DNA of 64,000 nt from Candidatus Altiarchaeota archaeon (GTDB lineage: Archaea > Altiarchaeota > Altiarchaeia > IMC4 > SCGC-AAA252-I15), in contig JAZDNF010000009.1 in NCBI GenBank assembly GCA_043800255.1, forward strand, positions 293,847 to 357,846, in the 5' to 3' direction. Positions 21,566-40,756 of the stretch are shown one piece after another. Numbering within the stretch: position 1 is the first letter of the stretch; each line of letters opens with the position of its first letter. The translations under genes and the position numbers were made by a program. Under the pieces are notes generated by a model. That model was not told the origin of the DNA. It saw only the letters and a program-made list of their open reading frames with translations, and did not search any database.

Positions 21566-21607
21566 ATGCGCTTTTTAAAGTTAATTCACATAATACTTGT
21601 CGTTAAG

Positions 21608-22252
21608 ATGTCACTGATGGGGATGGGCGGTGATAAGCCCTCAGAAAGCCACAAGATGTGGTTGATTCCGGCTGCGATAGCGGTTGTTATGCTCTTTGTT
21701 ATCGGGACAATAGGCATCTTAGGAGTTTATTACATACTCTCCCGCGGATCAGAACCTGATGCAGAGCTTACGACAAGCACGACAACAACAAGCACGACGT
21801 CAACATCCAGCATCCTGACAACCTCAAGCGCGCCGTCCACGACTTCGCTGGCAAGCACGAGCAGCGTCCCCACGACGACTGCCCCCACATGCGATGACGG
21901 GGTGATAAACCAGGATGAGGAGGACGTTGACTGCGGGGGACCGTGCGACCCGTGCATGAAGTCAGCCGAGAAGGTAGCCCTCTGCCTGTCCATGAAGGGC
22001 GTCACATTATACATGAGGAATGACGACGTCTGCCTCCAGTGCAAATCCATAAGAGAATACTTCGGCAACTCATTAAGCTTGATAAATGTGATAGACTGCG
22101 ACGAAAGCGACAACGAGGACAGCTGCGACGACATGCTGGACACTGCAAAAGAGCAGGAAAAACGGCAGGGTTATCCCACATGGAACATCCTGGGCGAACT
22201 GTACCCAGGCGCTGGAGTGGAAAGGATTAAAGCTGTTACGAACTGCAAGTGA
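21608..22252 (+). CDS. Membrane-anchored protein: Thr/Ser linker, Cys-rich repeat, glutaredoxin-like domain
   Basis: TM, T-rich linker, CDDGVINQDEEDVDCGGPCDPC, CLQC, GYPTW. Confidence 0.7.
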   Translation: MSLMGMGGDKPSESHKMWLIPAAIAVVMLFVIGTIGILGVYYILSRGSEPDAELTTSTTTTSTTSTSSILTTSSAPSTTSLASTSSVPTTTAPTCDDGVINQDEEDVDCGGPCDPCMKSAEKVALCLSMKGVTLYMRNDDVCLQCKSIREYFGNSLSLINVIDCDESDNEDSCDDMLDTAKEQEKRQGYPTWNILGELYPGAGVERIKAVTNCK

Positions 22253-22269
22253 CTTCAGAAGCTATAACC

Positions 22270-22674
22270 TTATTCGACCTCGTATCCTGCAGATTTCCAG
22301 GCTCTCACACCGCCCTTCAGGTTGTAGACGTTAGTGTAGCCCAGTTCCACTAGATCCTCCGAGGCCTTCGTGCTCATACTCCCGCTCCTGCAGTAGACTG
22401 CAATAGGTGTGCTCCTGTTCTTAGGGAGTAGATCAGCGTTTTCCTTGATGTCGGTGTAGGGTATGAACGCATCGGTCCCATTGATGTGACTCTGCTCTGG
22501 AATGTGAACGTCCAACACGAAGGTGTTCGAGTCGTCCACCAGAACCTTGAACTCCTGAGCAGATAGGTCAGAGTAGCCCTTAGTCCCTGAGGAGCCTCCC
22601 AGGCAACCGCTCAATGAGACAAAAACGCCCAGCAACATCAGAGAACACACCCTGTTGGGGATATTAGACCTCAT
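22270..22674 (-). CDS. Rhodanese-domain lipoprotein
   Basis: LSGC lipobox; LDVH, YCRSGSMS active loop, NLKGGVRAW. Confidence 0.85.
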   Translation of the reverse strand: MRSNIPNRVCSLMLLGVFVSLSGCLGGSSGTKGYSDLSAQEFKVLVDDSNTFVLDVHIPEQSHINGTDAFIPYTDIKENADLLPKNRSTPIAVYCRSGSMSTKASEDLVELGYTNVYNLKGGVRAWKSAGYEVE

Positions 22675-22723
22675 TTCTTGTGTTATTGGGAAGCAGACCA
22701 TAATAAATTCAATCCTAGCGGGA

Positions 22724-23155
22724 CTATAGGCACGAGCCGCGGCTGCACGTGCCGACCCTGTAGACATAATGCAGGGTCACGTTCTCCCTGCCAACGGCGT
22801 CCTCGCCGAAGCAGCAGCAGGTGTCATATTTCATGTCCGCACAGTAACGGCTGCCTGCCCTGCTCTTGACCTCACTGTTCAATCGGCACTCCATCAGGTT
22901 GCGCCTGCAGTAGCCTCCAACGAAGCCGTCAGACTGGCACACGCCCCCGCAGCTCTCCAAGTTTATCGTTGAAGTCGAAGTGGAAGACGATGTCGAAGTT
23001 GAAGACGTCGTCGAAGTTGAGGTGGTAGTAGTTAGCACGACAGTGGACGTGACAGTAGTCCCAGACAGGGTACTTGTGACCGGCGCCTGCCTCTCGCTGC
23101 CAATGCAGCCTGACAATAAGACGACAGCCATCACGACAACAGTGCATAGTCTCAT
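22724..23155 (-). CDS. Cys-rich lipoprotein with Thr/Ser linker
   Basis: LSGC lipobox, long T/S tract, Cys-rich C-terminal domain (DTCCC). Confidence 0.7.
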   Translation of the reverse strand: MRLCTVVVMAVVLLSGCIGSERQAPVTSTLSGTTVTSTVVLTTTTSTSTTSSTSTSSSTSTSTINLESCGGVCQSDGFVGGYCRRNLMECRLNSEVKSRAGSRYCADMKYDTCCCFGEDAVGRENVTLHYVYRVGTCSRGSCL

Positions 23156-23215
23156 AGGCTATACCCCTTTGGTAGGTAGCATAGAAAAAGCATGCAGTAA
23201 CCAGAAGGAAAGCAG

Positions 23216-24154
23216 CTATACTGAAAGTTGGGAGTCTATCACCTGCTCGAACACCTCATAAGGCTGCGCCCCTATTATCGCGATGCCGTTCACGAAGAAT
23301 GTCGGGGTTGCGGAAACCATCCCAAGCTCATTGCCGTCGTTCACGTCCGCCATGACCTCCTCGGCGTACTTGCCTGAGTCCAGGCACTCGTCAAATTTTT
23401 TGGAATCGAACCCGAGTTCGACTGCATGCCGCTTAAGGTCTGATATGTTCAGTTCGCTGGGACTGTCATAGAGCCTGTCATGGTACGCCCAGAACCTACC
23501 CTGCTCGTTCGCGCATTGTGCTGCCTCGGCAGCCTTTGGAGCGTAGTCGTGGATCGTCAGAGGAAAGTCCCTGTAAACCAGTTTCACTTTGCCGGTGTGT
23601 ATGTAATCCTTTTCCAGGAGAGGGAGCGTCTCCCTGTAGAATTTCGCGCAGAACGGGCACTCGAAGTCAGAAAACTCGACTATCGTGACGGTTGCGTTCT
23701 CGCTGCCCTTCACAGGGTCGTCATCAGCGCCGGGCGGGTTCAGGAACTTTCCGCCTCCGAGGGACGCAGGATTTATTACGTAAGAGCCCCCCTTCTCCAC
23801 GAGGGATTCATTCACTGCCTTGAAGTTCTCCTGCCGTTCCACGCTCTTGTCGAAGATGTAAGCCGGCAGGACTGTTATGCCAAGCTCGCCTATAAGTTCT
23901 CCCGCCTCCTTTGAGGAGCCGTCAATCTCCCTGACCTGAACGTTCGGGAAAACCTTGTTCCGCGTGTAGGCTATAATCTGGGAAGTATCGCATATTCCGC
24001 AGCCAGGAGCGGATATCACCGTCAGCTCCACAGCAGGCCCTGAGATTGATGTCGTAGGAGCAAATGGGGCGCTTATGGTCGATGTCTCATTCGATTGTCC
24101 GATGCAGCCGCTCACCAGAACAATCCCAACCATCAAAAGATAAGCAAACCTCAT
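23216..24154 (-). CDS. DsbA-family thiol-disulfide oxidoreductase lipoprotein
   Basis: VSGC lipobox; extra CGIC domain; EFSDFECPFC, RDFPL, ATPTFFVNG, GAQP. Confidence 0.9.
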   Translation of the reverse strand: MRFAYLLMVGIVLVSGCIGQSNETSTISAPFAPTTSISGPAVELTVISAPGCGICDTSQIIAYTRNKVFPNVQVREIDGSSKEAGELIGELGITVLPAYIFDKSVERQENFKAVNESLVEKGGSYVINPASLGGGKFLNPPGADDDPVKGSENATVTIVEFSDFECPFCAKFYRETLPLLEKDYIHTGKVKLVYRDFPLTIHDYAPKAAEAAQCANEQGRFWAYHDRLYDSPSELNISDLKRHAVELGFDSKKFDECLDSGKYAEEVMADVNDGNELGMVSATPTFFVNGIAIIGAQPYEVFEQVIDSQLSV

Positions 24155-24217
24155 AATCGTACCTTCAGCTATAGTATTCTGGCATATAAATAGGTGGACG
24201 AACAAACCGTGAAACTC

Positions 24218-25591
24218 TCAGAAGTACAGGTCCCGCTCACCCGCTTCTATCCGCTTAAGGCGTGCAAGAGTCTCTCCTCTTACGTTCTGGTCGGATATCT
24301 GCCCAATACACTTATTCAAGGCTGCTGCACCCAGCTCCCTAACGTCCTCTGAAGCGTAGTCCTCCAAGTACTCCTTGAACGTGAGGATGGCATTCGGCCT
24401 GCATAGCAGGTTTATGTTGCCTGGCTTCGCCAAGTCCATGAACGTCCTGCCGGTCCTAGCCTTCCTGTAGCAGGCGGTGCAGAAGCTCGGCAGCAGGTTC
24501 TGTCCTAGGACGCCCTTCAGGACCTCGTCAAGGGTGCGAGAATCTGAAAGAGAAAACTGAGTCAGCTCTCCATCGCCTCCATAGCCTCCAGGTGAGGTCC
24601 TAGACGCTGCCGAAGTCTGGGATATGCCTATCTCAAAAGCCTTCGCCCTCACCTCAGGCCGCTCCCTTGTGGAGATTATCATCCCAGTATAGGGCACGGC
24701 CAGCCTCAGTATGGCGATAACTTTGAGGAGTTCATCCTCTGACACTGGATAGGGGGGTTGCTCCCATCCCGTGGAGTCCGCAGGCTGCCATCTGGGAACA
24801 GAGAATGTGTGAGGACCCACCCCGAACACGTTATCCAGATACTGCGCATGCGAGATTAATCCCATAACCTCAGACTTATAATCGTACAGTCCGAATAAAA
24901 CGCCAAGCCCGACATCGTCGATTCCTGCCTTGAATGCCCTGTCGTGGGCGAAAAGCTGCCTCTCGTAGTCTGCCTTAGGACCATCGTGCAACTTCTCATA
25001 GGTTTTCTGGTGGTAGGTCTCCTGGAACAGCTGGTAGGTGCCGATGCCAGCCTCCTTCAACCGCTTGTAGTCTTCGACCGTTGAGGCTGCCACGTTAACG
25101 TTCACCCTCCTGATTTCGCCTCTCCCATGTTTTGTGCTGTAGATCGTGTTGATTACGTCAACTGCGTAGTCTATTGTGTTAAGAGGGTGTTCGCCGAACT
25201 CCAGCAGGAGCCTCTTGTGGCCCATGCCCTCCAGGATTCTGACCTGTTCTTCGACCTCTTTCAATGTGAGCCTTTTCCTGGGCGCGGGGTTGCTGCGGTG
25301 GAAGCCGCAGTATTCGCAGTCGTTAACGCAGTAGCTCGATACGTACAGTGGCGCGAAGAAGACCAGGCGTTCGCCATAGATTTCTCTCTTGATTCTTCCA
25401 GCAGCTTCGAATACTTCTGACAGCAGCTGGGGATCTTCCACGTTCAACAGACAGGCCACGTCCTTCAGAGATAATCCCTTCTTCTTGAGAGCCCTCTCCA
25501 GGATGAACCTGACGTCATCAGGGGAAGGTTTCGCTCCCTCTGAGAGCAGGCTGCTGATTTCTCCCCAGTCCACGATCTTTCCCACGTCCAT
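24218..25591 (-). CDS. hydG: [FeFe]-hydrogenase maturase HydG
   Basis: FAPLY.SSYCVNDCEYCGF, GEIRRVNVN, GIGTYQLFQETY, PHTFSVPR, and C-terminal FCTACYR...CRPNA auxiliary-cluster motif (absent in ThiH). Confidence 0.9.
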   Translation of the reverse strand: MDVGKIVDWGEISSLLSEGAKPSPDDVRFILERALKKKGLSLKDVACLLNVEDPQLLSEVFEAAGRIKREIYGERLVFFAPLYVSSYCVNDCEYCGFHRSNPAPRKRLTLKEVEEQVRILEGMGHKRLLLEFGEHPLNTIDYAVDVINTIYSTKHGRGEIRRVNVNVAASTVEDYKRLKEAGIGTYQLFQETYHQKTYEKLHDGPKADYERQLFAHDRAFKAGIDDVGLGVLFGLYDYKSEVMGLISHAQYLDNVFGVGPHTFSVPRWQPADSTGWEQPPYPVSEDELLKVIAILRLAVPYTGMIISTRERPEVRAKAFEIGISQTSAASRTSPGGYGGDGELTQFSLSDSRTLDEVLKGVLGQNLLPSFCTACYRKARTGRTFMDLAKPGNINLLCRPNAILTFKEYLEDYASEDVRELGAAALNKCIGQISDQNVRGETLARLKRIEAGERDLYF

Positions 25592-25592
25592 C

Positions 25593-26879
25593 CTATATTC
25601 CCAAGTCTGTCGGAGCCCTTCCTAGAGAATAAAGAAGCTCCAGAGTCTCCGTTATTCTGTCCTCGGTCGTCTTATTACTCTGGATTCCAGGATAAAGAGC
25701 ATAATTCTTTCCGTATTCTCCCGGAGTCAACTTTATCATCAGGGAGTTCGCGCCGGCCAGCAATCCCATCCGGGCAGCATCAGGGTCGAGGGTCTCCAGA
25801 GCTGTGGTCACGAGTATTTTGGCATCTGGGCTCAGCAGCCTGCTGACTGCCAGGACCTTGAGGACGGAGTCAACCTCACTAGGAACTGCTCCAGCCAGCG
25901 GAGTATCAGGGTTCGGGATGAACGGCCCGAAAGAGTGCATCTCAGCGCCCAACTCTTTTGTTAGGAGGATGTCGTTCATAAGGTCCTCCGTTGTCTGGCC
26001 TGGCAGACCTATCAATGAGCCGGTAGCTACCAGATACCCTAAATCTGCAGCGTGTCTTATCAGTTTCAGCCTGTCAGAGAGCTTCCCGCCAGGATGGAAT
26101 CTCCCATAGAGCTCCCTGTTCGAAGTCTCAAACCTGAGGAGGACTCCCCTGGCACCTGCCTCGTACATCCTCCGGTAGCATTCCCTGCCACGCTCGCCCA
26201 CGCTCATGAAGATGAGAACGCCACACTCCTCTTTTATTCTTCTGATTGTCTCGGTCAGTCTCTCGATTGAATACCATGAGTCCTCCCCAGACTGGAGGAC
26301 GAGAGCCTTGAAGCCGTGGACGTTGACAGCCTCCCCTGCGGCATCAACTATCTCGTCAACCGTCATCCTGTAGCGCGGCAGGCTGCCGTTCCCCTGCCGT
26401 ATTCCGCAGTAGGCGCAGTCCCTCCTGCAGTGGTTTGAGAACTCTATTATGCCGTGCACGCAGCAGGAGTTCTTAAGGTTCCTCTTCCGCATTAGGTTTG
26501 CAGTAGTGTACAACAACTTAAGTTCGCCATCATCTTCAGAGCCCAGAAGCCTCAGGATTTCATCGCTAGAGAGAGGCCTGCCAAGCGAGGCCTTGTCCAT
26601 CAGCTCAAGGAAGTCTTTGCCTGCAGTTGGAGGATTAACATTTGATAGCTTTTCATCCACCTTCTGAAGCTCGAAGAACGCCTCCCGCCAGGTTTCCAGC
26701 GTCTCCTCAGCCGCCTCCCTGGAGACCCTCTGGACCACGAAGCCCCCCTGCGCGTACACGTAATCTCCGACAGCCAAGTTATCGAACTCGTTCACGACTT
26801 TTCTATGCTCCCCGAAGTAGTCGACGACAGCTACCCTGTCGTTGAGCTCCACAACCCTGCCGGGAATCGCATAACACAT
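25593..26879 (-). CDS. HypC-domain::HydE-like radical SAM fusion
   Basis: N-term MCYAIPGRVVEL..AVVDYFG...VGDYVYAQGGFVVQRVS.EAAEETL (HypC fold); then CRRDCAYCG, YRM, LQSGED, LLRFETSN..LY..HP, GPFIPNPDTPL, GANSLM..LTP..YALYPG (HydE). Confidence 0.85.
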   Translation of the reverse strand: MCYAIPGRVVELNDRVAVVDYFGEHRKVVNEFDNLAVGDYVYAQGGFVVQRVSREAAEETLETWREAFFELQKVDEKLSNVNPPTAGKDFLELMDKASLGRPLSSDEILRLLGSEDDGELKLLYTTANLMRKRNLKNSCCVHGIIEFSNHCRRDCAYCGIRQGNGSLPRYRMTVDEIVDAAGEAVNVHGFKALVLQSGEDSWYSIERLTETIRRIKEECGVLIFMSVGERGRECYRRMYEAGARGVLLRFETSNRELYGRFHPGGKLSDRLKLIRHAADLGYLVATGSLIGLPGQTTEDLMNDILLTKELGAEMHSFGPFIPNPDTPLAGAVPSEVDSVLKVLAVSRLLSPDAKILVTTALETLDPDAARMGLLAGANSLMIKLTPGEYGKNYALYPGIQSNKTTEDRITETLELLYSLGRAPTDLGI

Positions 26880-26894
26880 GTAATAGAATCGGAT

Positions 26895-27509
26895 TCATGC
26901 TATTTTACTTAGCGATTCCTCGACCAGCCTGCTGATGTCAAGAGCTTCTTCCATGGACTTTATGAAAGCGCTGTCGGCTTTCGTCGCAGGCTTATTTGGG
27001 ACAAGGCCGCAGCACAGGCCGGGCCGTATTGATATCTCATAGGTTCCAATCTCTTTCGCGACTTCTATGATGTCCTCCTTGTCGAATCCTATGAGAGGGC
27101 GTACGACGGGGATGGACACTGCCGCCTCTATGGCCTTCAGATTGCTCAGGGTCTGTGAGGCCACCTGTCCAAGCGACTCGCCGGTGAGTATGCCCTCCAG
27201 CCCTTTGTCCTTTGCTATCCTCTCGGCAAGCCTTAGCATCATCCTCTTGCACAGGACGCACTGGAACTTCCGGTTCTTCCTGAGGAAGGCCGAGTAGCTG
27301 GCACCGAATGGTATGACAAGCTTAAGTATGGTTCGCGAGGTCTTGCGTTCGAGCTGCCTTACGAGCTCGTGAAAGTTGTTCAGAGTGCGTGAGTCGGTGT
27401 ATGCGCTGTTGTCGAAGTGTATTGCAACAATATCATGGCCTTTCGCCAGCATCAGGTACGCTGCGACAGGCGAGTCAATCCCGCCCGAAATCAGAGCCGC
27501 GAGTTTCAT
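26895..27509 (-). CDS. ThiI-like PP-loop sulfurtransferase, catalytic domain only (no THUMP)
   Basis: SGGIDS, CVLC, TGESLGQVASQTL, PLIGFDKEDI, LCC; only 204 aa. Confidence 0.85.
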   Translation of the reverse strand: MKLAALISGGIDSPVAAYLMLAKGHDIVAIHFDNSAYTDSRTLNNFHELVRQLERKTSRTILKLVIPFGASYSAFLRKNRKFQCVLCKRMMLRLAERIAKDKGLEGILTGESLGQVASQTLSNLKAIEAAVSIPVVRPLIGFDKEDIIEVAKEIGTYEISIRPGLCCGLVPNKPATKADSAFIKSMEEALDISRLVEESLSKIA

Positions 27510-27682
27510 CCTCCGTAGGTTGCCTTGATGAACTCGACACAGTCTGCGGCGGAGATGGGCTCGTCTTTAGGGCACAAGGTCCCGTTCTTCACGGCAAGGT
27601 AGCTGCTCGAATCCACTTCAAGCTTGTCCATCAGCTCCTTGACCGTTTTGCAGTCCCTGTGCAAGCTGCAGTCTATCTCCAT
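27506..27682 (-). CDS. Ubiquitin-like sulfur carrier (ThiS/MoaD/SAMP-like)
   Basis: 58 aa from ATG 27682: TVKELMDKL...AVKNG...VEFIKATYGG* (C-terminal GG); 4 Cys. Confidence 0.85.
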   Translation of the reverse strand: MEIDCSLHRDCKTVKELMDKLEVDSSSYLAVKNGTLCPKDEPISAADCVEFIKATYGG

Positions 27683-27684
27683 CT

Positions 27685-28848
27685 TCAAGCAACCTCCATG
27701 CCGTTCTCCCTCGCAATCTCCTTGAACGACTCTGACAGGTGTTTTATCTGATCCCAGTTGAGACCGTATGTGTTCAGCTTCCACTCCATTGTGGCCCCAG
27801 GGAACGGCCCAAGGATTCCGCGGCCTTCAAGCGCGCTCGACAGGAAGTAGCCGCGCTTCCTGTGGCCTTCAGCCACCTTGTTGAAGCTGTCACTAGTGTC
27901 GACTTTCGTCAGGGTGTGCTTCCGCGGCATCTCGCTCAGGACCCTGCTGCCCTTCACCTTCAGGAACTCGTCCATGAAATAGTTCACCTTCTTGACTTCA
28001 TCATCCCAGTGTTTGACCCTCTCTTTGACCTTCGGGAAAGACGCTATCATCGAAATAAGAGGGGCGCCCATCACAGTGCAACCCAGGAGCTCCGTCTCCT
28101 TGATGCCGAACTTCCTCCCCGTTATGTCACCTTTCAACGAGGTTGTCCTGAAGACCTTCTGAGCATACTCTTCGGTTGTTGCCAGAACGCCTGACGGCGC
28201 AGCGGATGCCATCGACTTGTGCCCTGAGCCTACTATGAAGTCGGCGTTCAGTTTCTTCCCGTCAACCGGCATAGTGCCGACAGTGTATGCGCCGTTGTAC
28301 AGAAATGGGACGTCATGCTCATGGCATACTTTGCCGATTTCGGCGACAGGGTGCAGGTTACCGTACAGGTAGTCGACATGGTGTATCGCCACCAGCTTAG
28401 GCTTGAGTTCCTCTATTTTTCTCTCGACAGCGTCTGCTGTTATGATATGATTCTCGTCCAACGGCACTTCCTTCCAGACGGCGCCTGCGGACTCGATGGC
28501 AAGGCACAGCGAATAGTGGGCGAGGGAGCTGACCAGTGCAACATCCCCTTTATCGAGTAGGCTGTTCGCGACGATCTGGAACGCGTTTCTCGCGCCCCTC
28601 ACCACCCTGGCCTGGTCCATGTTCACGAACTTGGCAAGCTCCTCATAGAACGCCCCGATGGGCGGCTTCTGTATCTTGTCCAGCCTGAACGGCTTGAAGC
28701 AGAAGTCGCATGTCGAGTAGCCGTCGCCGTAGGATATGATGGCCTTCCTCGCCTCCAACGTAAGCCTCCCGGCTGCCTGTATGGGCTGGATGTTTATGTA
28801 ATCCTCCTCCCTGCTGCGTATCGGGAGGGCATCTGTTATGTTTGTCAT
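27685..28848 (-). CDS. pscS: Sep-tRNA:Cys-tRNA synthase (SepCysS)
   Basis: INIQPIQAAGRLT, DGYSTCDFC, GAR, AHYS, YNGAY, SGHKSMA (PLP Lys), ELLGCT. Confidence 0.93.
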   Translation of the reverse strand: MTNITDALPIRSREEDYINIQPIQAAGRLTLEARKAIISYGDGYSTCDFCFKPFRLDKIQKPPIGAFYEELAKFVNMDQARVVRGARNAFQIVANSLLDKGDVALVSSLAHYSLCLAIESAGAVWKEVPLDENHIITADAVERKIEELKPKLVAIHHVDYLYGNLHPVAEIGKVCHEHDVPFLYNGAYTVGTMPVDGKKLNADFIVGSGHKSMASAAPSGVLATTEEYAQKVFRTTSLKGDITGRKFGIKETELLGCTVMGAPLISMIASFPKVKERVKHWDDEVKKVNYFMDEFLKVKGSRVLSEMPRKHTLTKVDTSDSFNKVAEGHRKRGYFLSSALEGRGILGPFPGATMEWKLNTYGLNWDQIKHLSESFKEIARENGMEVA

Positions 28849-29018
28849 AATTTCGCCTCTAAGTTGTCCAGCGCCTTCCTCGCCTTCTTCAGAGCCTTCT
28901 CAAGGCGCGTCTTCTGCTCAACGTTGAGCTTATGCCCTGGCGCAGTCTCCCTCAGGAGTTCCCTGATGTCTTCCAGCGCGAACAGGCCGTTAAACAATGC
29001 TTCCGTTTCCTCGGTCAT
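28845..29018 (-). CDS. SepCysSn-like small helical partner (SepCysE N-terminal homolog); not in ORF track
   Basis: 57 aa MTEETEALFNGLFALEDIRELLRETAPGHKLNVEQKTRLEKALKKARKALDNLEAKL*; ATGA overlaps with both thiF and pscS. Confidence 0.8.
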   Translation of the reverse strand: MTEETEALFNGLFALEDIRELLRETAPGHKLNVEQKTRLEKALKKARKALDNLEAKL

Positions 29019-29794
29019 CTTGTTCCTCTAATATAATTTTTTTGACCTTTATTAATGTCATTTTGGGAGCATGCCCTGCATTCCGGATTCTTTCTCAGTT
29101 TTATCTCCCTGAACGTCATGCTGCCGCCGTCGTATACTAGGAGGCGGTCGTATAAGGGCTGTCCTAAACCTGTCAGGATTTTGATGACTTCCGTGGCCTG
29201 TATTGTTCCGACAACGCCTGGCGTGCTCCCCAGGACAGGGAACTTTTTAACAGGCGGCGCTGTAGGGTAAACGCACGCGAAGCAGGCGGTCTTGGGAGGG
29301 TTGAATACTGTCACTCTGCCCTCCAGGCCGGAAACGCTGCCGTGGACGAGGGGGATTCCGCTGTCCACTGAGACCTTGTTCAGGACATGCCGGGTGTCAA
29401 TGTTATCCAGGCAGTCCACGATCACATCAGAGTTAGCCACCAGCCGTCTGGCATTCATCTCATCGATCTTATTCATCACACCCTCTAAGCTCACATTCGA
29501 ATTCAGCTTAGAGAGCTTTTCGACGGCAGACTCGACCTTCATCCTGCCGACGTCATCCTCGTTGTGCAGAACCTGCCGGTTCAGGTTGCTCAGCTCGACT
29601 CTGTCCTTGTCCGCTATTATGAGCTTCCCGACGCCGGCAACTGTGAGGTATGTCAGGACAGGGCTGCCCAGGCCTCCGACGCCGGCCACGAAAACGGTAG
29701 AATTGCTGAGCCTTTTCTGACCTCGCTCTCCGAATCCGTCTATCATCAGCTGCCGGTCATACCTCTCAAATTCTTTTTTATCAGTCCTTCCCAT
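29015..29794 (-). CDS. ThiF/MoeB/UbaA E1-like adenylyltransferase
   Basis: RYDRQ, GVGGLG, DRVELSNLNRQ, DCLDN, CFAC, CRAC. Confidence 0.92.
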   Translation of the reverse strand: MGRTDKKEFERYDRQLMIDGFGERGQKRLSNSTVFVAGVGGLGSPVLTYLTVAGVGKLIIADKDRVELSNLNRQVLHNEDDVGRMKVESAVEKLSKLNSNVSLEGVMNKIDEMNARRLVANSDVIVDCLDNIDTRHVLNKVSVDSGIPLVHGSVSGLEGRVTVFNPPKTACFACVYPTAPPVKKFPVLGSTPGVVGTIQATEVIKILTGLGQPLYDRLLVYDGGSMTFREIKLRKNPECRACSQNDINKGQKNYIRGTR

Positions 29795-29873: not shown

Positions 29874-31286
29874 TTAATCGTCAACTGCTTTGACTCTCTC
29901 AGCAAGCGTGGAACCATCCGGCTGGTCTGTAAGAGCCAAGCCGCCTCTCAGGAGCTCGTCTCTGATTCTGTCAGCCTCAGCCCACTTTTTGTTCAACCTC
30001 AAGAGCCGTCTCTTTTCGACCAGAGCGCTCTCCTCCTCCGTTAATTCTACAGCCTCAGAGGGCAGCGTGATGCCCAGGGCATTCAGAAGCCGGCCTAGGA
30101 TGTCCAACGCGCCTTTGATAGACTCGGCAGACTCGTTTCCGCCGTCTAGCAGAGGGTTTATGCGCTTTACAGCATCGAAGAGCGAGGCAACAGCCTGGGA
30201 CGTGTTGAAGTCGTTGTTCATGTGCCCTATGAAGTCAGACTCCGCCCCCTCCATCACATCAAGTGCAATATGATCTCCGGAGTCTGTGGACTTAGCTATG
30301 GCATCCCCCAGAGCCCGCCTGAAGTTGCCCAACCTTTTGAGCGCGCTCTCGGCTTTCGCCACGTTCTCGCTGCTGTAATCTATGGGGCTCCTGTAGTTTG
30401 TCTGGAGCACAAAAAGTCTCAGAGCGCTTGCACTGTGCCCTTTTAGGAAATCTCTCACGGATATTATGTTCCCAAGCGACTTGCTCATCTTCTCGCCTGT
30501 CGAGTTGAGGAAGCCGGTGTGAAGCCAGTATCTTACAAAAGGCTTTTTCCCGCTTAACGACTCGCTCTGCGCTATCTCGTTCTCATGGTGGGGGAATATC
30601 AGATCCAACGCTCCGCCGTGGATGTCAAACCTGTCCCCAAGATATTTTTGTGACATCACGGAGCATTCGATATGCCACCCAGGCCTGCCGCGACCCCAGA
30701 GACTGTCGAATCCCAGCTCATCTTCTGAGGATTCCTTCCACAGGGAGAAATCGAGCGGAGACCTCTTGCCAGAATCGTGTTCGACCCTGTGCCTGTCCAG
30801 CTCCTCCGTCTTCTGGTTCGAGAGTCTGCCATAGTCTGGAAAGGTTGAAACGTCAAAGTATACGCTGCCTCCAACAGAGTAGGCGTGCCCTGAGTCTATC
30901 AGCTTCCTGACCGCATCTATTATGTCAGGAATATGCTCCGAAACCTTCGGGTATACGTCTGGTTCAAGCAGTCCAAGGTTTTTCCTGTCCTCTGACGCCC
31001 TCTCAGAGAATTCCTTCGAAAGTTCGAGCGGCGGAACACCCCTCTCAAGAGCCCTGTTGATTATCTTGTCGTCAACGTCTGTTATGTTCTGGACGTACGT
31101 CACCCTGTAACCGAGGGACTTCAGGTGCCTGAGGATGACGTCGAATGCGATGTATGTTCTAGCGTGTCCGATGTGCATGTAATCGTAGACTGTCAGGCCG
31201 CAGACGTAGACGCTGACCTCGCCCTCCCTGAGCGGTCTGAACTCCTCAATCTGCCTTGACAGCGTGTTATAAACTCTCAATGCCAT
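29874..31286 (-). CDS. cysS: Cysteinyl-tRNA synthetase
   Basis: YVCGLTVYD..HIGH, GRPGWHIECS, DLIFPHHENE, KMSKS. Confidence 0.97.
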   Translation of the reverse strand: MALRVYNTLSRQIEEFRPLREGEVSVYVCGLTVYDYMHIGHARTYIAFDVILRHLKSLGYRVTYVQNITDVDDKIINRALERGVPPLELSKEFSERASEDRKNLGLLEPDVYPKVSEHIPDIIDAVRKLIDSGHAYSVGGSVYFDVSTFPDYGRLSNQKTEELDRHRVEHDSGKRSPLDFSLWKESSEDELGFDSLWGRGRPGWHIECSVMSQKYLGDRFDIHGGALDLIFPHHENEIAQSESLSGKKPFVRYWLHTGFLNSTGEKMSKSLGNIISVRDFLKGHSASALRLFVLQTNYRSPIDYSSENVAKAESALKRLGNFRRALGDAIAKSTDSGDHIALDVMEGAESDFIGHMNNDFNTSQAVASLFDAVKRINPLLDGGNESAESIKGALDILGRLLNALGITLPSEAVELTEEESALVEKRRLLRLNKKWAEADRIRDELLRGGLALTDQPDGSTLAERVKAVDD

Positions 31287-31403: not shown

Positions 31404-31474
31404 AGCGGAGAGGGGGAATTGAACCCCCATACACGGGGTTGCAGCCCGCTACATAGCCACTCTGTCATCTCCGC
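31404..31474 (-). tRNA. tRNA-Cys(GCA), A37, U73, CCA not encoded
   Basis: GCGGAGA TG ACAGAGTGGCTATGT A GCGGG CT GCA AC CCCGT GTAT GGGGG TTCAATT CCCCC TCTCCGC T folds as a cloverleaf. Confidence 0.95.
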
Positions 31475-31526: not shown

Positions 31527-32111
31527 TCAGATGGTCCACTCTATCTCTTTCGCGCAAACCTCGCAGGGGTCTTTGAATCTGACGTATGCGCCTTCCATTA
31601 CCCTGAGCCTGCCTTTGGGGCAGACTACGGTTGAATTCTCAGGTATGTCGTCGACTATGACTGACAGGGCGCCTATTTTCGAGTTCTTTTTTATGGTGAC
31701 CGGCCCGAGTACTGCGGCTCCGACGCCTATGGTGACATTGTCCTCTAGGGTTGGGTGCCTCTTCTCTCCTTTTTTGTCTCTCCACCATCCGTGGCCGCCG
31801 AGGGTGACGCCCTGATAGAGCATCACATTGTCGCCGATTTCGGCTGTCTCGCCGATTACAACGCCGGTAGCGTGGTCTATGAAAAAGTTCTTACCTATTT
31901 TCGCGCCAGGATGTATTTCAGCCCCTGCGAGGAATCTCCCAAAGTAGGATATTGCCCGCGGTATTATCGGTATGCCCAGCGTGTGGAGGAAATGCGACAC
32001 CCTGTAAAGTATTATCGCCTGGACTCCAGGGTAGAATATAACCTCCAGGTAGTTTATGCCGCCCCTCAGCGCAGGATCCTTCCGGTATGCTGTCCTGAAC
32101 ACTTCAAACAC
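31527..32111 (-). CDS. cysE: Serine O-acetyltransferase
   Basis: [38 protein letters not shown]; GTG start overlapping the cysK end. Confidence 0.93.
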
Positions 32112-33033
32112 TTTGCTCCCTCTTTTCGTATAACTGTGTTGACAGGTATCTCTCGCCTGTGTCAGGTATAACAACAACGACGCGCTTGCCCTTGCCAAGC
32201 CTATTAGCGACTTGCAACGCGGCCCACGTGTTGGCTCCAGCTGATATGCCTGCGAGTATGCCCTCCTCCAAAGCCAGCCGCTCAGATGTCTTGAATGCAT
32301 CCTCGTTTGTCACCTGTATGGTCTCGTCTATGAGGCCGACATCGAGTATGTCTGGGATGAAGCCAGCTCCGATGCCCTGTATCTTATGGGGCCCCGGCTT
32401 CCCGCCGGAGATGACAGGAGATGCTGTCGGCTCGACGGCGATGAACTTCGCCTTCGGCAGTTTCTTTTTAAGTACTGACGCGACGCCGGTTATGGTCCCG
32501 CCTGTGCCCACGCCGACTACGAATGCGTCGAACGTCTTAACCTCCTTCAGCAGTTCCTGCGCCGTGGTCTCCATATGCGCCTTCACGTTCGCCCTGTTCT
32601 TGAATTGCTGGGGTATGAAAACGTGCGAGTCTTCCTTGGCAAGCTCCTCCGCCTTCTCTACGGCGCCTTTCATCCCCTTAGCGCCTTCCGTCAGGACCAG
32701 CTCGGCTCCGAACGCTTTCAGTATTTTCCTCCGCTCCAGGCTCATTGTCTCGGGCATGGTGAGTTTCAGCTTGTAGCCTTTGACCGCGCTGACCATGGCC
32801 AGGCCTATGCCGGTGTTACCAGATGTCGGTTCGACTATGATGCTGTCCTTGCCTATTATGCCCTCCTTCTCAGCCTCTTCTATCATGTACAGCGCTATCC
32901 TGTCCTTTACGGACGAACCTGGGTTGAAGAACTCCAGCTTTGCTATGACTTCCGCGTCATCCGGGCCCGTAAGTTTGTTCAGCCTTACGTGTGGCGTCCC
33001 GCCTATCGTTTCCAAAATGTTTTTGTGTATCAT
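32104..33033 (-). CDS. cysK: Cysteine synthase A
   Basis: [45 protein letters not shown]; GAGGTGA RBS at 33038-33044. Confidence 0.96.
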
Positions 33034-34262: not shown

Positions 34263-35393
34263 CTAGCCGAGATACGTTTTCGCCTCGCCATTGAGGAAGT
34301 CGAGCAATAGGTTGCCCAGGGTGTTGTTGTAGATTAGGAACGTGTCGTGGCCGTAGGGGAGGTCCAGCTCCCTGTAGACTGTCGGCACACCAGCCTCCGC
34401 CAGCCCGGCTGCTATTTCTCCCACCTGCTCCGGCGGGTAAAGCCAGTCGGATGCAAACGACACCAGCAGGAACTTGGCCTTCACGTTCTTGAAAACGTCC
34501 CTGAGCTTCTTCCTCCCGCCTTCAGTAAGGTCGAACTGGTCGATGGCGTAGGTTATGTAAAGGTAGCTGTTCGCGTCGAAACGCCTGGCGAAGCTCTGAC
34601 CCTTGTAGTTGAAATAGCTCTGTATTTCGAACTCGACTCCGAATTTTGTATGAGCCTTGCCCCTCTTCCTCTTCCTGCCGAACTTCCGCTCCAGCGTGTC
34701 CTGGCTCAGGTATGTGATGTGGCCTATCTGCCTTGCTAGGGACAGGCCGTTTTTAGGCTGCTTCCTGTAGTTTCCGCCCTGCCAGGCGGGGTCGCTTAGT
34801 ATGATCTTCCTGCCTATGTCGTGGAATACTATCCCTAGTGAGTACTGTTTTGCCGACGTCGCTATCGGAATCGCAATGTGGACCGCTTCAGGGTAGTCTA
34901 CAGTCCACTGCAACGCCTGCATGCCGCCGAGGCTGCCGCCTGTGACGCAGAACAGCTTCTTTATTCCCAGATGGTCTATGAGCTTCTTCTGAGCCCTCAC
35001 CATGTCAGCCACGGTTATTATCGGGAAGTCGAGACGGTAGGGTCTTCCGGTTTTGGGATTGACAGACGACGGGCCTGTGGAGCCCTTGCAGCCGCCGATG
35101 ATGTTGCTGCATATCACGAAATACTTCTTCGTGTCGAAGGTTTTTCCAGGCCCTATTGCGACGTCATACCATCCGTTTTTTCTGCTGCTCTTCCTGTGCT
35201 TGCCAGCCGCATTGGCGTCGCCGCTCAGGGCGTGACATATCAGAACCGCGTTGGTTTTGTCTTTGTTCAGTTTCCCGTACGTCTCATAGGCTATTCTGAC
35301 AGGCTTCAGCTTTTCTCCGCTGTCCAGTCCGAGCTCGTCGAATTCAACATGTTTGGTCTTCACGACCCCGACTGAACCCGGTCTTTTTGTCAT
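34263..35393 (-). CDS. metX: Homoserine O-acetyltransferase
   Basis: CHALSG, GGCKGSTGP, GGSLGGMQ, RFDANSY, SDWLYP, YGHDTFL. Confidence 0.93.
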   Translation of the reverse strand: MTKRPGSVGVVKTKHVEFDELGLDSGEKLKPVRIAYETYGKLNKDKTNAVLICHALSGDANAAGKHRKSSRKNGWYDVAIGPGKTFDTKKYFVICSNIIGGCKGSTGPSSVNPKTGRPYRLDFPIITVADMVRAQKKLIDHLGIKKLFCVTGGSLGGMQALQWTVDYPEAVHIAIPIATSAKQYSLGIVFHDIGRKIILSDPAWQGGNYRKQPKNGLSLARQIGHITYLSQDTLERKFGRKRKRGKAHTKFGVEFEIQSYFNYKGQSFARRFDANSYLYITYAIDQFDLTEGGRKKLRDVFKNVKAKFLLVSFASDWLYPPEQVGEIAAGLAEAGVPTVYRELDLPYGHDTFLIYNNTLGNLLLDFLNGEAKTYLG

Positions 35394-36688
35394 TTTGTCT
35401 CTGTCTTCTCCAATGCCTGCTCTATGTCTTCGATGATGTCGTCAACATTCTCCAAACCGATTGACAGCCTGACCAAGTCGGGAGATATTCCCCCGTCCAG
35501 CAGTTGTTTCTCCGTCAGCTGGCTGTGGGACGTGCTTGCAGGATGCAATGCCAGGCTTTTGGCGTCGCCGACGTTCGCAAGGTGGGAGAACAGTTTGAGG
35601 TTTTCGATGAATTTCTCGCCTGCCTTTCTGCCTCCTTTTATGCCGAACACTACCATCCCGCCGTATCCTTTTTTCAGGTACTTTTTGGCATTCTTGTGTG
35701 TTGGGTGAGTGTCCAGTCCGGGATACTTGACCCATGTCACCTTCTCGTGCGACGTGAGATACTCGGCGACCTTGGCTGCGTTTTCGCAGTGCCGTTCCAT
35801 CCTCAATGGGAGGGTCTCCAATCCTTGCAGGAAGATCCAGGAGTTGTCTGGCGAGATGCAGCCGCCGAGGTTCCTCAAAGGCACAAGCCGCATCCTCAGG
35901 ATGTAAGCCAGCGGCGTCAGCGGGCCTAGGTCGTGCGCGTAGCGTATCCCATGATAGCTTGCGTCAGGCTCTGTCAGCAATGGGTGCTTTTTAGACTTTG
36001 ACCAGTCGAATTTTCCTGAATCAACCACCGCCCCACCGATTGCAGTCCCGTGGCCGCCTATCCACTTGGTCAGCGAGTGCGCCACTATGTCAATGCCATG
36101 TTCTATCGGCCTGAGCAGATAGGGCGGCGTGAAGGTGCTGTCTATTATGAAGGGTATTCCGTTGTCGTGGGCTATCTGGGCGATAGCTTTGAAATCGGGG
36201 ACGTTCAATGCAGGGTTCCCCAGGGTTTCAGCGTACAATGCCTTTGTCTTTCCCGTTATCGCCTTCTTGAAGTTGTCCGGGTCTGTCGGGTCGACAAACT
36301 TTACTTTGATTCCCAAATCCGGGAGTATGTTGTTGAACTGTGTGTAGGTCCCGCCATATAAGTCGTTGGCGGAGACTATCTCGTCTCCTACTCGTGCGAG
36401 GTTTATTATGCTGTAGAATATCGCCGTCGTCCCTGATGACAGCGCCAGACCGCCTACCCCGCCCTCAAGGTCTGCAAGCCTTTTCTCGAGCACGTCTGTT
36501 GTCGGGTTCATCAGCCTCGTGTAGATGTTCCCCAACTCCTTCAGGCCGAAGAGGTTGGCTGCGTGAGTCGTGTCCTTGAAGACGTAGCTTGATGTCCTGT
36601 AGACTGGCACTGCTCTTGAGAGTGTGGTCGGGTCCGGTTCCTGTCCTGAGTGCAGCGTCTTCGTCTCTATCTTGTAGTCTTTTGCCAT
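35390..36688 (-). CDS. metY: O-acetylhomoserine sulfhydrylase
   Basis: [45 protein letters not shown]. Confidence 0.95.
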
Positions 36689-36810: not shown

Positions 36811-37551
36811 CTAGTGCGGCAATAGAGTACCTGCGAAGAATATCACAAATACTCCAGATAGCAAGGCAGTTGTCTGCATTATCAGCCTCCTGAAATCACT
36901 GCCAGGGACTATTTCAGGCATCAGGTCTGCCGTCGCAATGTATATGAAACCGCCCGCAGCCAAAGCTATCACATTCGGTATCCAAGAGCCGATGCTGTTC
37001 AGGAAATAGTACCCCAGAACGGCACCGACTATTGAAGATGAAGCCGAGAGGAAATTGTAAAACAGCGCCTTCTTTCTCGAAAGCCCGAAATGCAACAACA
37101 CCGCGAAGTCCCCGAACTCCTGCGGAATCTCGTGGAGGGCGATGGCGATGGTCGTTATTATGCCTGTCGGAATGCTGGACAGGTAGGCTGCTGCAACAAC
37201 GATTCCGTCAATGAAATTGTGGACGCCGTCGCCTATCAGGTTAAGGTATGCGACGGGCCTGACGTGGCATTCGCTTTTACCGCAGTGGTGCCAGTGTATG
37301 AACTTCTCCATGATGAAAAAGCCCAGTATGCCCCACAATACAAAACTGAGAATGCTATTCCCGCCTTCTTCAACGGCTTCCGGGATGAGATCAAGGAATG
37401 CAGCCCCGATAAGAGATCCGGATGCGAACGCTAGCAGCATCTGGATGACCGTCTCAAGCGACTTCTTTCTGAAAGCCAGGCTCACTACACCAACAAGGGA
37501 TATTAGACTTATCAGGAGCACGCTCAAGAGTATGCTCACGAGGACTGCCAT
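36811..37551 (-). CDS. ZIP-family metal transporter
   Basis: HWHHC loop, GDGVHNFIDG, LHEIPQEFGDF. Confidence 0.92.
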   Translation of the reverse strand: MAVLVSILLSVLLISLISLVGVVSLAFRKKSLETVIQMLLAFASGSLIGAAFLDLIPEAVEEGGNSILSFVLWGILGFFIMEKFIHWHHCGKSECHVRPVAYLNLIGDGVHNFIDGIVVAAAYLSSIPTGIITTIAIALHEIPQEFGDFAVLLHFGLSRKKALFYNFLSASSSIVGAVLGYYFLNSIGSWIPNVIALAAGGFIYIATADLMPEIVPGSDFRRLIMQTTALLSGVFVIFFAGTLLPH

Positions 37552-40477: not shown

Positions 40478-40483
40478 CTGGCG

Positions 40484-40756
40484 TTAGAAGATGAATGTAA
40501 AGTAGATACCGTAATGTGAAATCCCATTAAGTCGCAAGGAATCAATAATGTCCTCGGCGGTGTTGTCAAGGTCAATTATCTCCTCCCGAGGTGTTACCAC
40601 CATGAACTGCCGCTTCCGCGTGTAGTCCTGAGCGGCCAGCCATTGTTTTACTTCAGTCCTCTGCTTGCTAGATGAAATTTCATTAATGTTTCGAGACCGT
40701 TTGGGTAGGTAGTTACATCTATGGAAGTTATCTTTGGCATTAGCAGGTTTAGTCAT
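40484..40756 (-). CDS. Hypothetical protein
   Basis: 90-aa ORF at the edge of the AT-richer islet; no motif. Confidence 0.35.
   Translation of the reverse strand: MTKPANAKDNFHRCNYLPKRSRNINEISSSKQRTEVKQWLAAQDYTRKRQFMVVTPREEIIDLDNTAEDIIDSLRLNGISHYGIYFTFIF

Follow-up and report, generated by a model that had tools for sequence, protein, structure and literature searches.

The tightly packed seven-gene run thiF-sepCysSn-sepCysS-carrier-thiI-hypC::hydE-hydG of this Altiarchaeota archaeon probably (about 60%) represents two functional units placed side by side in a wider sulfur-amino-acid island, one for tRNA sulfur and one for maturation of the Fe-CO/CN unit of a [NiFe] hydrogenase. Unit 1 would comprise tRNA-Cys, cysS, thiF, sepCysSn, sepCysS, the carrier and short thiI, and would serve tRNA; Unit 2 would comprise hypC::hydE and hydG. 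The novelty is the HypC::HydE-HydG pair and its tie to [NiFe] hydrogenases. An earlier, sequence-only reading had suggested an undescribed system; something undescribed does appear to be present in this pair, but a joint seven-gene pathway is not supported.

In the 64,000-nucleotide window (the whole stretch of DNA analyzed), all seven genes lie on the minus strand. The first, thiF (29015..29794; PF00899, 259 bits), encodes an E1-like adenylyltransferase of the ThiF/MoeB/UbaA type; its ATG at 29794 is the earliest of the ORF, which extends to 29818 if started at TTG. Its stop shares an ATGA with the start of sepCysSn (28845..29018), a gene for a 57-aa helical adapter peptide with 57-61% identical copies before SepCysS in relatives. 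A second ATGA overlap leads into sepCysS (27685..28848), encoding the PLP enzyme Sep-tRNA:Cys-tRNA synthase (TIGR02539, 389.6 bits against a cut-off of 365.25; NF006810, 570 bits). The gene for a 58-aa ThiS-like, ubiquitin-fold sulfur carrier (27506..27682; PF02597, 29.2 bits against 22.5) starts 2 nt later and overlaps, again by ATGA, the gene for short ThiI, a THUMP-less catalytic ThiI/TtuI subunit (26895..27509; PF02568, 209.5 bits). The hypC::hydE fusion (25593..26879; PF01455, PF04055, PF06968) begins 15 nt after the thiI stop, and hydG, encoding a radical SAM tyrosine lyase (24218..25591; TIGR03955, 540.4 bits against 312.15), begins 1 nt after that of hydE. Direct reading of the ORFs and junctions confirmed every ATGA overlap and both the 2-nt and 15-nt gaps that had been claimed for the run, and the gene identities originally assigned hold (sepCysS having been called pscS).

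Directly upstream on the same strand are four genes absent from the sequence-only reading: cysS, for cysteinyl-tRNA synthetase (29874..31286; PF01406, 408 bits); a tRNA-Cys(GCA) gene (31404..31474; ARAGORN), the sole tRNA gene in the window; a cysE-like hexapeptide acetyltransferase gene (PF00132 Hexapep); and cysK, for a PALP-family cysteine synthase (32104..33033; PF00291, 249.6 bits). The cysE-like ORF as listed (31527..32300) overlaps cysK, so that the true cysE start is probably further downstream. The seven-gene run is embedded in an island of cysteine and methionine genes.

This setting, the very tight spacing of the run and the lack of any terminator-like site on the minus strand between 23000 and 34000 all favor the pathway originally proposed, in which E1, carrier, SepCysS and short ThiI would together sulfurate something other than tRNA or supply the Fe-CO/CN product of HydG/HydE with sulfur. 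HydG, moreover, uses free cysteine. We nevertheless consider a single pathway very improbable. Conservation of the gene neighborhood had been named beforehand as the test that could refute it, and hydE/hydG proved to be unlinked from the relay genes: none of the latter occurs near hydG in the seven loci fetched from relatives; among the best 80 of 341 HypC::HydE loci, drawn from other phyla, ThiF is nearby in one and short ThiI in none; and HydG is absent from all 80 metagenome loci around ThiI relatives. Two further points, a separate THUMP partner for short ThiI and the usual partners of SepCysS, also argue against it, and are described below.

The E1 encoded by thiF is the only one in the genome (a single tblastn match genome-wide) and has two CxxC pairs close to its C-terminus. 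The carrier ends in YGG and contains the four extra cysteines reported earlier (Cys5, Cys11, Cys37 and Cys48); we found no close relatives of this 58-aa protein besides a paralogue of 34% identity (G000:C7:260182-260358, G000 being this genome), which is encoded beside ThiM/ThiE-like ORFs named from their N-termini. Of the 11 loci fetched around relatives' short ThiI, 3 contain ThiF, always preceded closely by a gene for a 90-aa GG carrier. ThiF is also found in 7 of the 46 metagenome loci whose ThiI lacks THUMP. The grouping of an E1 and a GG carrier with a PP-loop sulfurtransferase bearing CXXC+C was correctly recognized from the sequence. In our model, the single E1 would adenylate and thiocarboxylate the carrier, which would then pass sulfur to the [4Fe-4S] cluster of short ThiI, much as TtuB does to TtuA. 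TtuA/TtuB/TtuC of Thermus and NcsA/SAMP2/UbaA likewise use an E1, a ubiquitin-like protein thiocarboxylate and a tRNA sulfurtransferase of the Fe-S PP-loop type; here the E1, the GG carrier and the cluster-type enzyme are encoded in one operon, and the E1 recurs adjoining short ThiI in relatives and metagenome loci. Unlike those systems, the enzyme here is a ThiI-type (U8) protein, not a TtuA or NcsA, and the carrier, a putative sulfur donor, is just 58 aa long with four cysteines.

The sepCysSn peptide has no Pfam or NCBIfam match, and its name is taken from Mukai 2017 (PMC5424206). SepRS is encoded elsewhere on the same contig and scores above its cut-off. SepCysS and SepCysSn would convert the Sep-tRNA-Cys made by this SepRS to Cys-tRNA-Cys, as in SepRS/SepCysS/SepCysE(n) tRNA-dependent cysteine synthesis; here too, SepCysSn is encoded ahead of SepCysS. 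SepCysS need not act as the free sulfur mobilizer suggested earlier, since its usual partners SepRS, SepCysSn and an adjacent tRNA-Cys are all present. Mukai 2017 (PMC5424206) describes clade VII SepCysS loci with a tRNA-Cys gene and sulfur metabolism genes nearby, a likeness to the present locus that concerns neighborhood.

Short ThiI matches PF02568 over residues 4-191 and aligns to residues 189-390 of B. anthracis ThiI (2C5S). It has a PP-loop (SGGIDS) and a CVLC motif (C84, C87) followed later by CC (C167), with the motif cysteines invariant in 5/5 aligned copies, and a domain search found no THUMP or NFLD region, all in accord with the original description. The suggested check for a separate full-length ThiI in the genome found none, the sole other match being a 265-aa PP-loop ORF of 25% identity. 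The genome does encode a separate 284-aa NFLD-THUMP protein (G000:C7:60539-61390) with a degenerate, shortened PP-loop domain, whose best PDB match is its ThiI-like homologue PH1313 of P. horikoshii (1VBK, E 4e-31); the SGGxDS site is lost in 8/8 aligned copies. Short ThiI and the NFLD-THUMP protein occur together in nine genomes (G000, G002, G008, G010, G012, G018, G019, G023 and G039), while most other relatives have a single ThiI of ~375-390 aa. G035 and G009 encode short ThiI plus a full-length ThiI, and G017 and G005, which are incomplete (67% and 82%, respectively), have short ThiI with no clear THUMP partner.

A predicted complex of short ThiI with the NFLD-THUMP protein scored 0.84, compared to 0.00 for the best of three controls; three runs shared at least 91% of contacts, with a partner pLDDT of at least 85. 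Of 80 solved complexes, 58 attain this mark, as do 2 of 110 mismatched pairs. Resemblance to solved ThiI homodimers (4KR6, 2C5S) may account for the pass. The NFLD-THUMP protein is thus predicted to pair with short ThiI as a heterodimer, and this prediction, together with the co-occurrence of the two proteins, makes tRNA the most likely substrate of short ThiI, rather than the non-tRNA substrate first suggested. Short ThiI would be the catalytic half of a split s4U8 synthase, and the PH1313-related protein with its dead PP-loop the other half, gripping the acceptor end of the tRNA as U8 moves into the active site of short ThiI; the tRNA geometry would be that of the cross-subunit ThiI homodimer. 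The archaeal [4Fe-4S] ThiI/TtuI enzymes of M. maripaludis and P. furiosus share the PP-loop and CXXC+C, whereas here the catalytic and tRNA-binding parts are split over two polypeptides in the predicted heterodimer. We found no description of such a split-ThiI heterodimer in the literature. Formation of s4U8 by CXXC+C ThiI enzymes requires a [4Fe-4S] cluster (PMC9825150).

Short ThiI could instead serve SepCysS rather than U8, as a cluster-bearing sulfur donor or partner within a SepCysSn-SepCysS complex converting Sep-tRNA to Cys-tRNA. Consistent with this idea, SepCysSn, SepCysS and short ThiI are contiguous in 7 of the 11 loci fetched around relatives' short ThiI, often just a few bases apart, and metagenome locus L221 has the same arrangement; to our knowledge, the physiological sulfur donor of SepCysS is unsettled. 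We regard the idea as improbable, however, because THUMP-less ThiI stands without SepCysS in 43 of 46 metagenome loci, and because a THUMP subunit accompanies short ThiI and is its predicted binding partner. Moreover, SepCysS or CysRS is also encoded directly upstream of full-length, THUMP-bearing ThiI (metagenome loci L212, L218, L226, L228 and L237), which points to co-regulation of tRNA enzymes, and the intact PP-loop of short ThiI suggests an adenylated substrate such as U8. The wording "sulfur donor" does not occur in the accessible portion of PMC8762117.

Turning to Unit 2, the 428-aa HypC::HydE product has a HupF_HypC domain (PF01455) on residues 1-64, followed by radical SAM and BATS domains. 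A long helix connects the HypC domain (MCYAIPG...) with the HydE-type radical SAM barrel (CRRDCAYC), and the AF2 model has a pLDDT of 92.5 and a pTM of 0.91. The fusion is similar to both T. maritima HydE (E 2.4e-69) and T. kodakarensis HypC (E 6.6e-10), and scores slightly under the cut-off of the HydE model TIGR03956 (252.2 against 254.6 bits). Cys2 of the HypC domain is invariant in 40/40 fusions, and a conserved CC pair precedes the radical SAM motif. HydG has an N-terminal CVNDCEYC and a C-terminal auxiliary-cluster motif, CTAC...(22)...C, and matches the HydG structure 4WCX with an E-value of 8.9e-156. The earlier statement that HydG and HydE are the kinds of enzyme that construct an Fe-CO/CN unit holds.

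Across 41 genomes of this order, HypD is found in 13 and HydG in 8, with no genome encoding both. All five fusion-type genomes (G000, G004, G011, G016 and G029) encode a NiFe large subunit; HypD, HypE and HypF are absent or under cut-off in G000, G004, G016 and G029, and HypD, the sole Hyp factor covered for G011, is absent there. HydF exceeds its cut-off in none of the 41 genomes, including all five of the fusion type. Among seven hydG loci in relatives, hydE is adjacent in five, four of them HypC::HydE fusions, and the fusion and its neighboring HydG are kept in these four relatives in unrelated gene contexts. The hydrogenase of G000 is encoded by a group-3b-like HyhB-G-S-L operon on contig C8, apart from the contig of the fusion; its large subunit has RICGIC, DPCISCSTH and a 7-residue tail. 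Neither G000 nor G016 yielded a HycI-type protease.

Species genomes contain 341 confirmed HypC::HydE loci. In the 80 best, the match covers residues 1-421 or more of the 428-aa fusion; these 80 come from DPANN archaea, Omnitrophota, Margulisiibacteriota, Saganbacteria, Spirochaetota, Scalindua and Nitrospiraceae, among others, and HydG is nearby in 55 of them. Near the fusion in the 62 bacterial loci we found genes for a NiFe large subunit (41), HycI protease (37), HyhB (35), HyhS (30), HyhG (30) and HypA (27). These hydrogenase genes are of the group-3b-like [NiFe] type, and the usual order is Rex-HyhB-HyhG-HyhS-HyhL-HycI-HypA-HypC::HydE-HydG. Large subunits near the fusion keep RxCGxC in 43/43 cases and DPCxxC in 42/43. 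A NiFe large subunit is encoded near the fusion in only 2 of the 18 archaeal loci, with the pair standing alone in the other 16. In 50 fusion-carrier genomes, our own choice among the 80 and taken without completeness values, a NiFe large subunit is present in 48, HypD in none and HypF above cut-off in none; HydA and HydF (over cut-off) are each present in nine.

On our best reading of these sequences, HypC::HydE and HydG would constitute a route to the Fe(CN)2CO unit that starts from tyrosine and does not depend on HypCDEF. Our literature search found no paper on such a route. In G000, the pair most likely makes the Fe-CO/CN unit of HyhBGSL, replacing HypC, HypD, HypE and HypF. From tyrosine, canonical HydG builds an Fe(Cys)(CO)2(CN) unit on its dangler iron. 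The HydE domain would remove cysteine from this unit, the invariant Cys2 of the fused HypC domain would then receive the iron fragment, and the HypC domain would hand it to the apo large subunit. Against a NiFe role, the ligand sets differ: NiFe sites contain Fe(CN)2(CO), while the canonical HydG product is Fe(CO)2(CN). The separate contig of the G000 hydrogenase, the missing HycI-type protease in G000 and G016 and the largely bacterial character of the adjacency to NiFe genes also weigh against it. The textbook view is that NiFe enzymes use machinery other than HydG (PMC6802093). HypC/HypD/HypE/HypF assembly of Fe(CN)2CO shares with the present system a HypC domain with an N-terminal Cys, and in bacteria the pair likewise follows the large subunit gene in the company of HypA and the HycI protease; here, however, HypD, HypE and HypF are absent, and CN would derive from tyrosine rather than carbamoyl phosphate.

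It is unlikely that HypC::HydE and HydG act as conventional [FeFe]-hydrogenase maturases in the absence of HydF, with the HydA of G000 lying in the unassembled 7% or too divergent to detect. HydG fits its equivalog model and 4WCX very well, with both cluster motifs, and the HydE domain is close to T. maritima HydE, as in H-cluster maturation by HydE/HydF/HydG. HydA is common in the order (14 of 41 genomes) and accompanies the fusion in G011 and G016, and Greening 2024 (PMC11216029) reports an incomplete maturase set in most HydA-bearing archaea. Yet HydA is missing from G000, G004 and G029 (92-93% complete each) and from 41 of the 50 other fusion carriers, and HydF is not over cut-off in this genome. 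The domain fused to HydE is the [NiFe] factor HypC, and the conserved CC pair is a further difference; the pair's genomic partners belong to [NiFe] hydrogenases, with the bacterial pair placed behind HyhL, HycI and HypA; and in relatives a canonical, HypC-less HydE is found with HydF and HydA (G014).

The solitary position of most archaeal pairs would also fit production of an iron carbonyl/cyanide or other cofactor for a third enzyme, with the [NiFe] link reflecting shared regulation (Rex, H2 metabolism) instead of maturation. Three genomes, G002 and G012 (90-92% complete) plus G007, encode a 3b-like operon together with a HypC that stands alone, yet lack HypD, HypF and HydG and carry none of the known ligand-making genes. 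In this group, the NiFe enzyme may therefore obtain its iron unit by some other route, and the absence of Hyp genes in the lineage is not accounted for by HydE/HydG alone. We think a third enzyme improbable even so, given the distributions of HypD (0/50 and 0/5) and the NiFe large subunit (48/50 and 5/5), the invariant Cys2 of the HypC domain, and the pair's occupation of the normal operon place of hypCDEF beside HycI and HypA. A caveat to the [NiFe] maturation role that we favor is that in G011, G016 and the nine of 50 fusion carriers with HydA, the pair may act in [FeFe] maturation.

The window (G000:C7:293847-357846) belongs to a 1.75-Mb genome in 17 contigs that is 93% complete (G000). Direct reading of its ORFs bore out the seven minus-strand genes of the sequence-only reading together with all of their junctions, and family searches back the gene identities. 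The first gene, thiF (29794..29015; PF00899, 259 bits), overlaps sepCysSn (29018..28845) by ATGA, and sepCysSn overlaps sepCysS (28848..27685; TIGR02539, 389.6 bits against a cut-off of 365.25) in the same way. Next, 2 nt after sepCysS, comes a 58-aa carrier with a C-terminal YGG (27682..27506; PF02597, 29.2 bits against 22.5), which overlaps a short, 204-aa thiI (27509..26895; PF02568, 209.5 bits) by ATGA. Behind these five relay genes, the fusion gene hypC::hydE (26879..25593) begins 15 nt after thiI, and hydG (25591..24218) begins 1 nt after the fusion. The locus sits inside a sulfur island: upstream of the relay genes and on the same strand lie cysS, a tRNA-Cys(GCA) gene (31404..31474, between cysE and cysS, and the sole tRNA gene within the 64-kb window), cysE, cysK, and then, upstream of cysK and within 34263-36688, genes for a MetX-like alpha/beta hydrolase and a MetY-like Cys/Met PLP enzyme. 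Downstream of hydG (22270-24205) are genes for a secreted DsbA-like thioredoxin and a rhodanese-domain protein. The window also holds a ZIP transporter gene (36811-37551), several small predicted secreted proteins whose long linkers are rich in Thr/Ser and whose C-terminal parts are rich in Cys (21566-23155), and, in a composition profile, stretches with a G+C content of 0.42-0.45 (40001-44000, 54001-56000 and 62001-64000) against about 0.51 elsewhere.

The sequence-only reading had joined all seven genes in a single cofactor pathway. This is not supported, because hydE and hydG are unlinked from the relay genes in relatives, and the same separation is found in broader samples. Among the 40 related genomes of the same order, HydG is present in seven (G026 gives an eighth, but only weak and partial, match), and none of the seven loci fetched around it contains any relay gene. 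In four of these relatives (G004, G011, G016 and G029), HypC::HydE adjoins HydG, with identities of 53-64% and 67-72%, respectively, and the four loci share no conserved neighbor except the pair itself. Across species genomes, we confirmed 341 HypC::HydE loci by tblastn; among the best 80, which cover residues 1-421 or more of the 428-aa fusion, one has ThiF nearby and none has short ThiI, the carrier or SepCysSn. HydG is likewise found in none of the best 80 metagenome loci around short-ThiI relatives. SepCysSn, SepCysS and short ThiI are contiguous in seven of 11 loci fetched around short ThiI in relatives, and ThiF is present in three of the 11, each time with a 90-aa GG carrier upstream. 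Judging from the tight spacing, the two units may be co-transcribed in this genome. The region remains of high interest, since one of the two units points to a probable second route of [NiFe] maturation.

That unit is the pair of HydG and the HypC::HydE fusion. HydG passes the TIGR03955 equivalog (540.4 bits against 312.15) and matches 4WCX with an E-value of 8.9e-156. HydG proteins carry a radical SAM motif, CX3CX2C, and a C-terminal auxiliary cluster motif, CX2CX22C; the translation keeps both, as CVNDCEYC and CTACYR...(22)...C, and the strict CX2CX22C pattern occurs in 43 HydG-like ORFs adjoining fusions. The HydE part falls just under the TIGR03956 cut-off (252.2 bits against 254.6), contains CRRDCAYC, and matches T. 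maritima HydE over residues 86-423 (E 2.4e-69). It is preceded by a complete N-terminal HypC domain (residues 1-64, beginning MCYAIPG; PF01455, 59.6 bits against 28.5), whose Cys2 does not vary in the 40 of 40 fusions compared. Shortly ahead of the radical SAM motif, an NSCCVHG motif contributes two cysteines at fusion residues 139-140, of which C140 is invariant and C139 is kept in at least 90% of the 40; T. maritima HydE lacks the CC pair and has GDEVHIR at the aligned place. The CC pair may form an extra iron-binding site. In an AlphaFold2 model, the fusion is predicted with confidence as a single body (pLDDT 92.5, pTM 0.91).

We rejected a thiamine (thiazole) reading, in which ThiF, a ThiS-like carrier, ThiI and a ThiH-like radical SAM protein would act together. 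The radical SAM protein reaches 275 against a ThiH cut-off of 380, yet scores 540 bits as HydG, and the pair travels with [NiFe] genes. The reading is further weakened by a second ThiS-like, 58-aa GG carrier outside the window (G000:C7:260182-260358; 34% identical, with Cys5 and Cys11 in common), which lies in a run with Ftr-, ThiM- and ThiE-like ORFs, named from the look of their N-termini alone.

The best 80 fusion loci come from DPANN and Altiarchaeota-labelled archaea and, among bacteria, from Omnitrophota, Margulisiibacteriota, Saganbacteria/WOR-1, Spirochaetota, Planctomycetes including Scalindua, Nitrospiraceae, Atribacterota and others; 55 of them include HydG. ORF clustering and Pfam scans reveal a recurring bacterial operon of Rex, HyhB, HyhG, HyhS, HyhL (the hydrogenase large subunit), HycI protease, HypA, HypC::HydE and HydG. 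A large subunit is encoded near the fusion in 41 of 62 bacterial loci, compared with only two of 18 archaeal ones. The metal ligands of [NiFe] large subunits lie in an N-terminal RxCGxC and a C-terminal DPCxxC motif, and the fusion-associated subunits keep the former in 43 of 43 cases and the latter in 42 of 43.

Whole-genome searches took in 50 of the best 80 carrier genomes. In these 50, whose completeness was not reported, we found no HypD and no HypF over the cut-off; a NiFe large subunit is present in 48, HydA in nine, and HydF over the cut-off in nine. HydF accompanies HydA in eight of the nine HydA-bearing genomes. Since some carriers also have HydA, a dual role of the pair is possible there. 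Several Omnitrophota loci, L084 and L099 among them, contain an additional HydG-like gene that is longer (about 498-517 aa; identity 42-47%), and in L084 a HydE lacking HypC also lies close to the fusion; the genomes of these loci tend to have HydA and HydF too.

Within the order, HypD occurs in 13 of the 41 genomes and HydG in eight, with zero overlap, and all five fusion-type genomes have a NiFe large subunit. One genome, G014, shows the canonical arrangement of HydG, HydE without HypC, HydF and HydA; HydF exceeds its cut-off in none of the 41. G000 has no HydA match and no HydF match over the cut-off, and in G000 and four relatives with HydG we found no match to HypD and none over the cut-offs to HypE or HypF. 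On contig C8, G000 carries a HyhB-HyhG-HyhS-HyhL operon for a group-3b-like [NiFe] hydrogenase, whose large subunit (C8:34997-36274) has both metal-ligand motifs, RICGIC and DPCISCSTH, and a short C-terminal tail.

With genomic evidence throughout, we put at slightly better than even (roughly 0.55) the probability that widespread microbes build the Fe(CN)2(CO) group of group-3b [NiFe] hydrogenases by means of HydG and HypC::HydE, without HypD, HypE or HypF; these microbes would include DPANN and Altiarchaeota-labelled archaea, Omnitrophota, Margulisiibacteriota, Scalindua and others. Because HydE is fused to HypC, a tyrosine-derived iron carbonyl/cyanide fragment would pass straight onto the HypC cysteine, and from there to the large subunit. 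Several observations count against such a route. The product of HydG is Fe(CO)2(CN), whereas the NiFe site is Fe(CN)2(CO), a different ligand stoichiometry. Three related genomes that are 90-92% complete, G002, G012 and G007, have the 3b-like operon with a stand-alone HypC (loci L167, G002:C15; L168, G012:C12; and L169, G007:C94), without HypD, HypF or HydG. A fourth, G020, resembles them, although it has HypF and is just 70% complete. In G000 itself, the hydrogenase operon lies on a contig other than that of the pair, and no HycI-type protease was found. Beside the stand-alone HypC we also observed genes for the glycine cleavage T and P proteins in G002, and the T gene in G020.

Every protein family involved is already known. 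HydG is regarded as specific to [FeFe] enzymes (PMC9431212, PMC6802093), and the "HydG" of PMC10284858 and PMC12008989 is the gamma subunit of sulfhydrogenase. A survey of HydE, HydF and HydG in archaea reports that most archaea with HydA lack them (Greening et al, 2024; PMC11216029). In the passages of the literature that we searched, we found nothing that ties HydG/HydE or a HypC-HydE fusion to [NiFe] maturation, and no description of HypC::HydE and HydG as a [NiFe] partner in genomes lacking HypD and HypF, although Table S3 of Greening et al may list the genes. If the HydG/HypC::HydE route is real, it would constitute a second, independent [NiFe] maturation pathway in which the CO ligand has a defined anaerobic origin, and it would form an evolutionary link from [FeFe] to [NiFe] maturation. 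The absence of Hyp genes would then cease to imply an inactive hydrogenase in many uncultured lineages, just as the presence of HydE and HydG would cease to imply [FeFe] metabolism. Where anaerobic maturation obtains its CO ligand, an open question, would become directly testable under anoxic conditions in fusion carriers; a two-gene cassette for [NiFe] maturation in heterologous hosts would also be conceivable.

The relay genes, for their part, read as a module for tRNA sulfur. SepCysS scores over the TIGR02539 cut-off and has all of its usual partners: SepRS in the same genome (488.4 bits against a cut-off of 380.65), SepCysSn, and the neighboring tRNA-Cys gene. Clade VII SepCysS genes are described as often having a tRNA-Cys gene and a few genes of sulfur metabolism as neighbors (Mukai et al, 2017; PMC5424206), and Figure S2 of Mukai et al, on SepCysS loci, may include the genes found here. 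ThiF has a ThiF-family adenylation domain, and the carrier combines its beta-grasp family match with a C-terminal GG. Since E1 genes recur beside THUMP-less ThiI (adjoining in seven of 46 metagenome loci) and this ThiF is the single E1 in G000, we infer that the E1 and carrier would supply sulfur to the short ThiI in a manner like TtuC/TtuB/TtuA. An E1-like protein, HcgE, is also encoded among the Hcg genes of [Fe]-hydrogenase. A homology search with the 58-aa carrier gave back the query alone, G000 yielded no 90-aa CysO/MoaD-like carrier such as lies upstream of ThiF in relatives, and small GG-ending ORFs near metagenomic short thiI genes were all implausible.

The sequence-only reading had described a ThiI with a PP-loop and CXXC+C but no NFLD or THUMP region, and had raised a non-tRNA substrate for it. 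The description holds: the protein has SGGIDS, CVLC and a later CC, with SGGIDS, C84xxC87 and C167 invariant in five of five aligned copies, and its 204 residues align just to residues 189-390 of 2C5S, leaving NFLD and THUMP off the chain. CXXC+C ThiI enzymes are reported to require a [4Fe-4S] cluster (PMC9825150). A search of G000 for a separate full-length thiI found none, the short ThiI being its only ThiI-type catalytic domain, and a separate THUMP protein is present. This 284-aa ORF comprises NFLD and THUMP followed by a shortened PP-loop domain without SGGxDS, and among solved structures it is closest to P. horikoshii PH1313 (1VBK; E 4e-31), described in a review as ThiI-like with a smaller PP-loop domain (PMC9957541). 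The short ThiI and the THUMP protein occur together in nine genomes, and most others have a single ThiI of about 375-390 aa; the exceptions are G017 (67% complete) and G005 (82% complete), with the short form only, and G035 and G009, with both short and full-length forms.

A predicted complex of the short ThiI and the THUMP protein scores 0.84, the best of three controls scoring 0.00; 58 of 80 solved complexes and two of 110 mismatched pairs attained this mark. Contacts agree by at least 91% between runs, with a partner pLDDT of at least 85, and the predicted interface involves the PP-loop remnant of the THUMP protein. In the ThiI dimer, the THUMP domain of one subunit presents tRNA to the active site of the other, and a heterodimer that pairs a catalytic subunit with a THUMP pseudo-subunit would agree with this cross-subunit mechanism. 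T. maritima ThiI is described as a dimer binding two RNAs (PMC9957541). Because ThiI homodimers are solved, the model's score may reflect merely a likeness to them. We found no description of a ThiI split into a catalytic and a PH1313-type THUMP subunit in the passages of the literature that we searched; such a split would assign a role to a protein whose solved structure was deposited as hypothetical. In metagenomes, genes for full-length ThiI with its THUMP domain directly follow those for SepCysS (L212, L218) or CysRS (L226, L228, L237), suggesting that tRNA-Cys and tRNA-thiolation enzymes are co-regulated rather than that ThiI has acquired a new chemistry.
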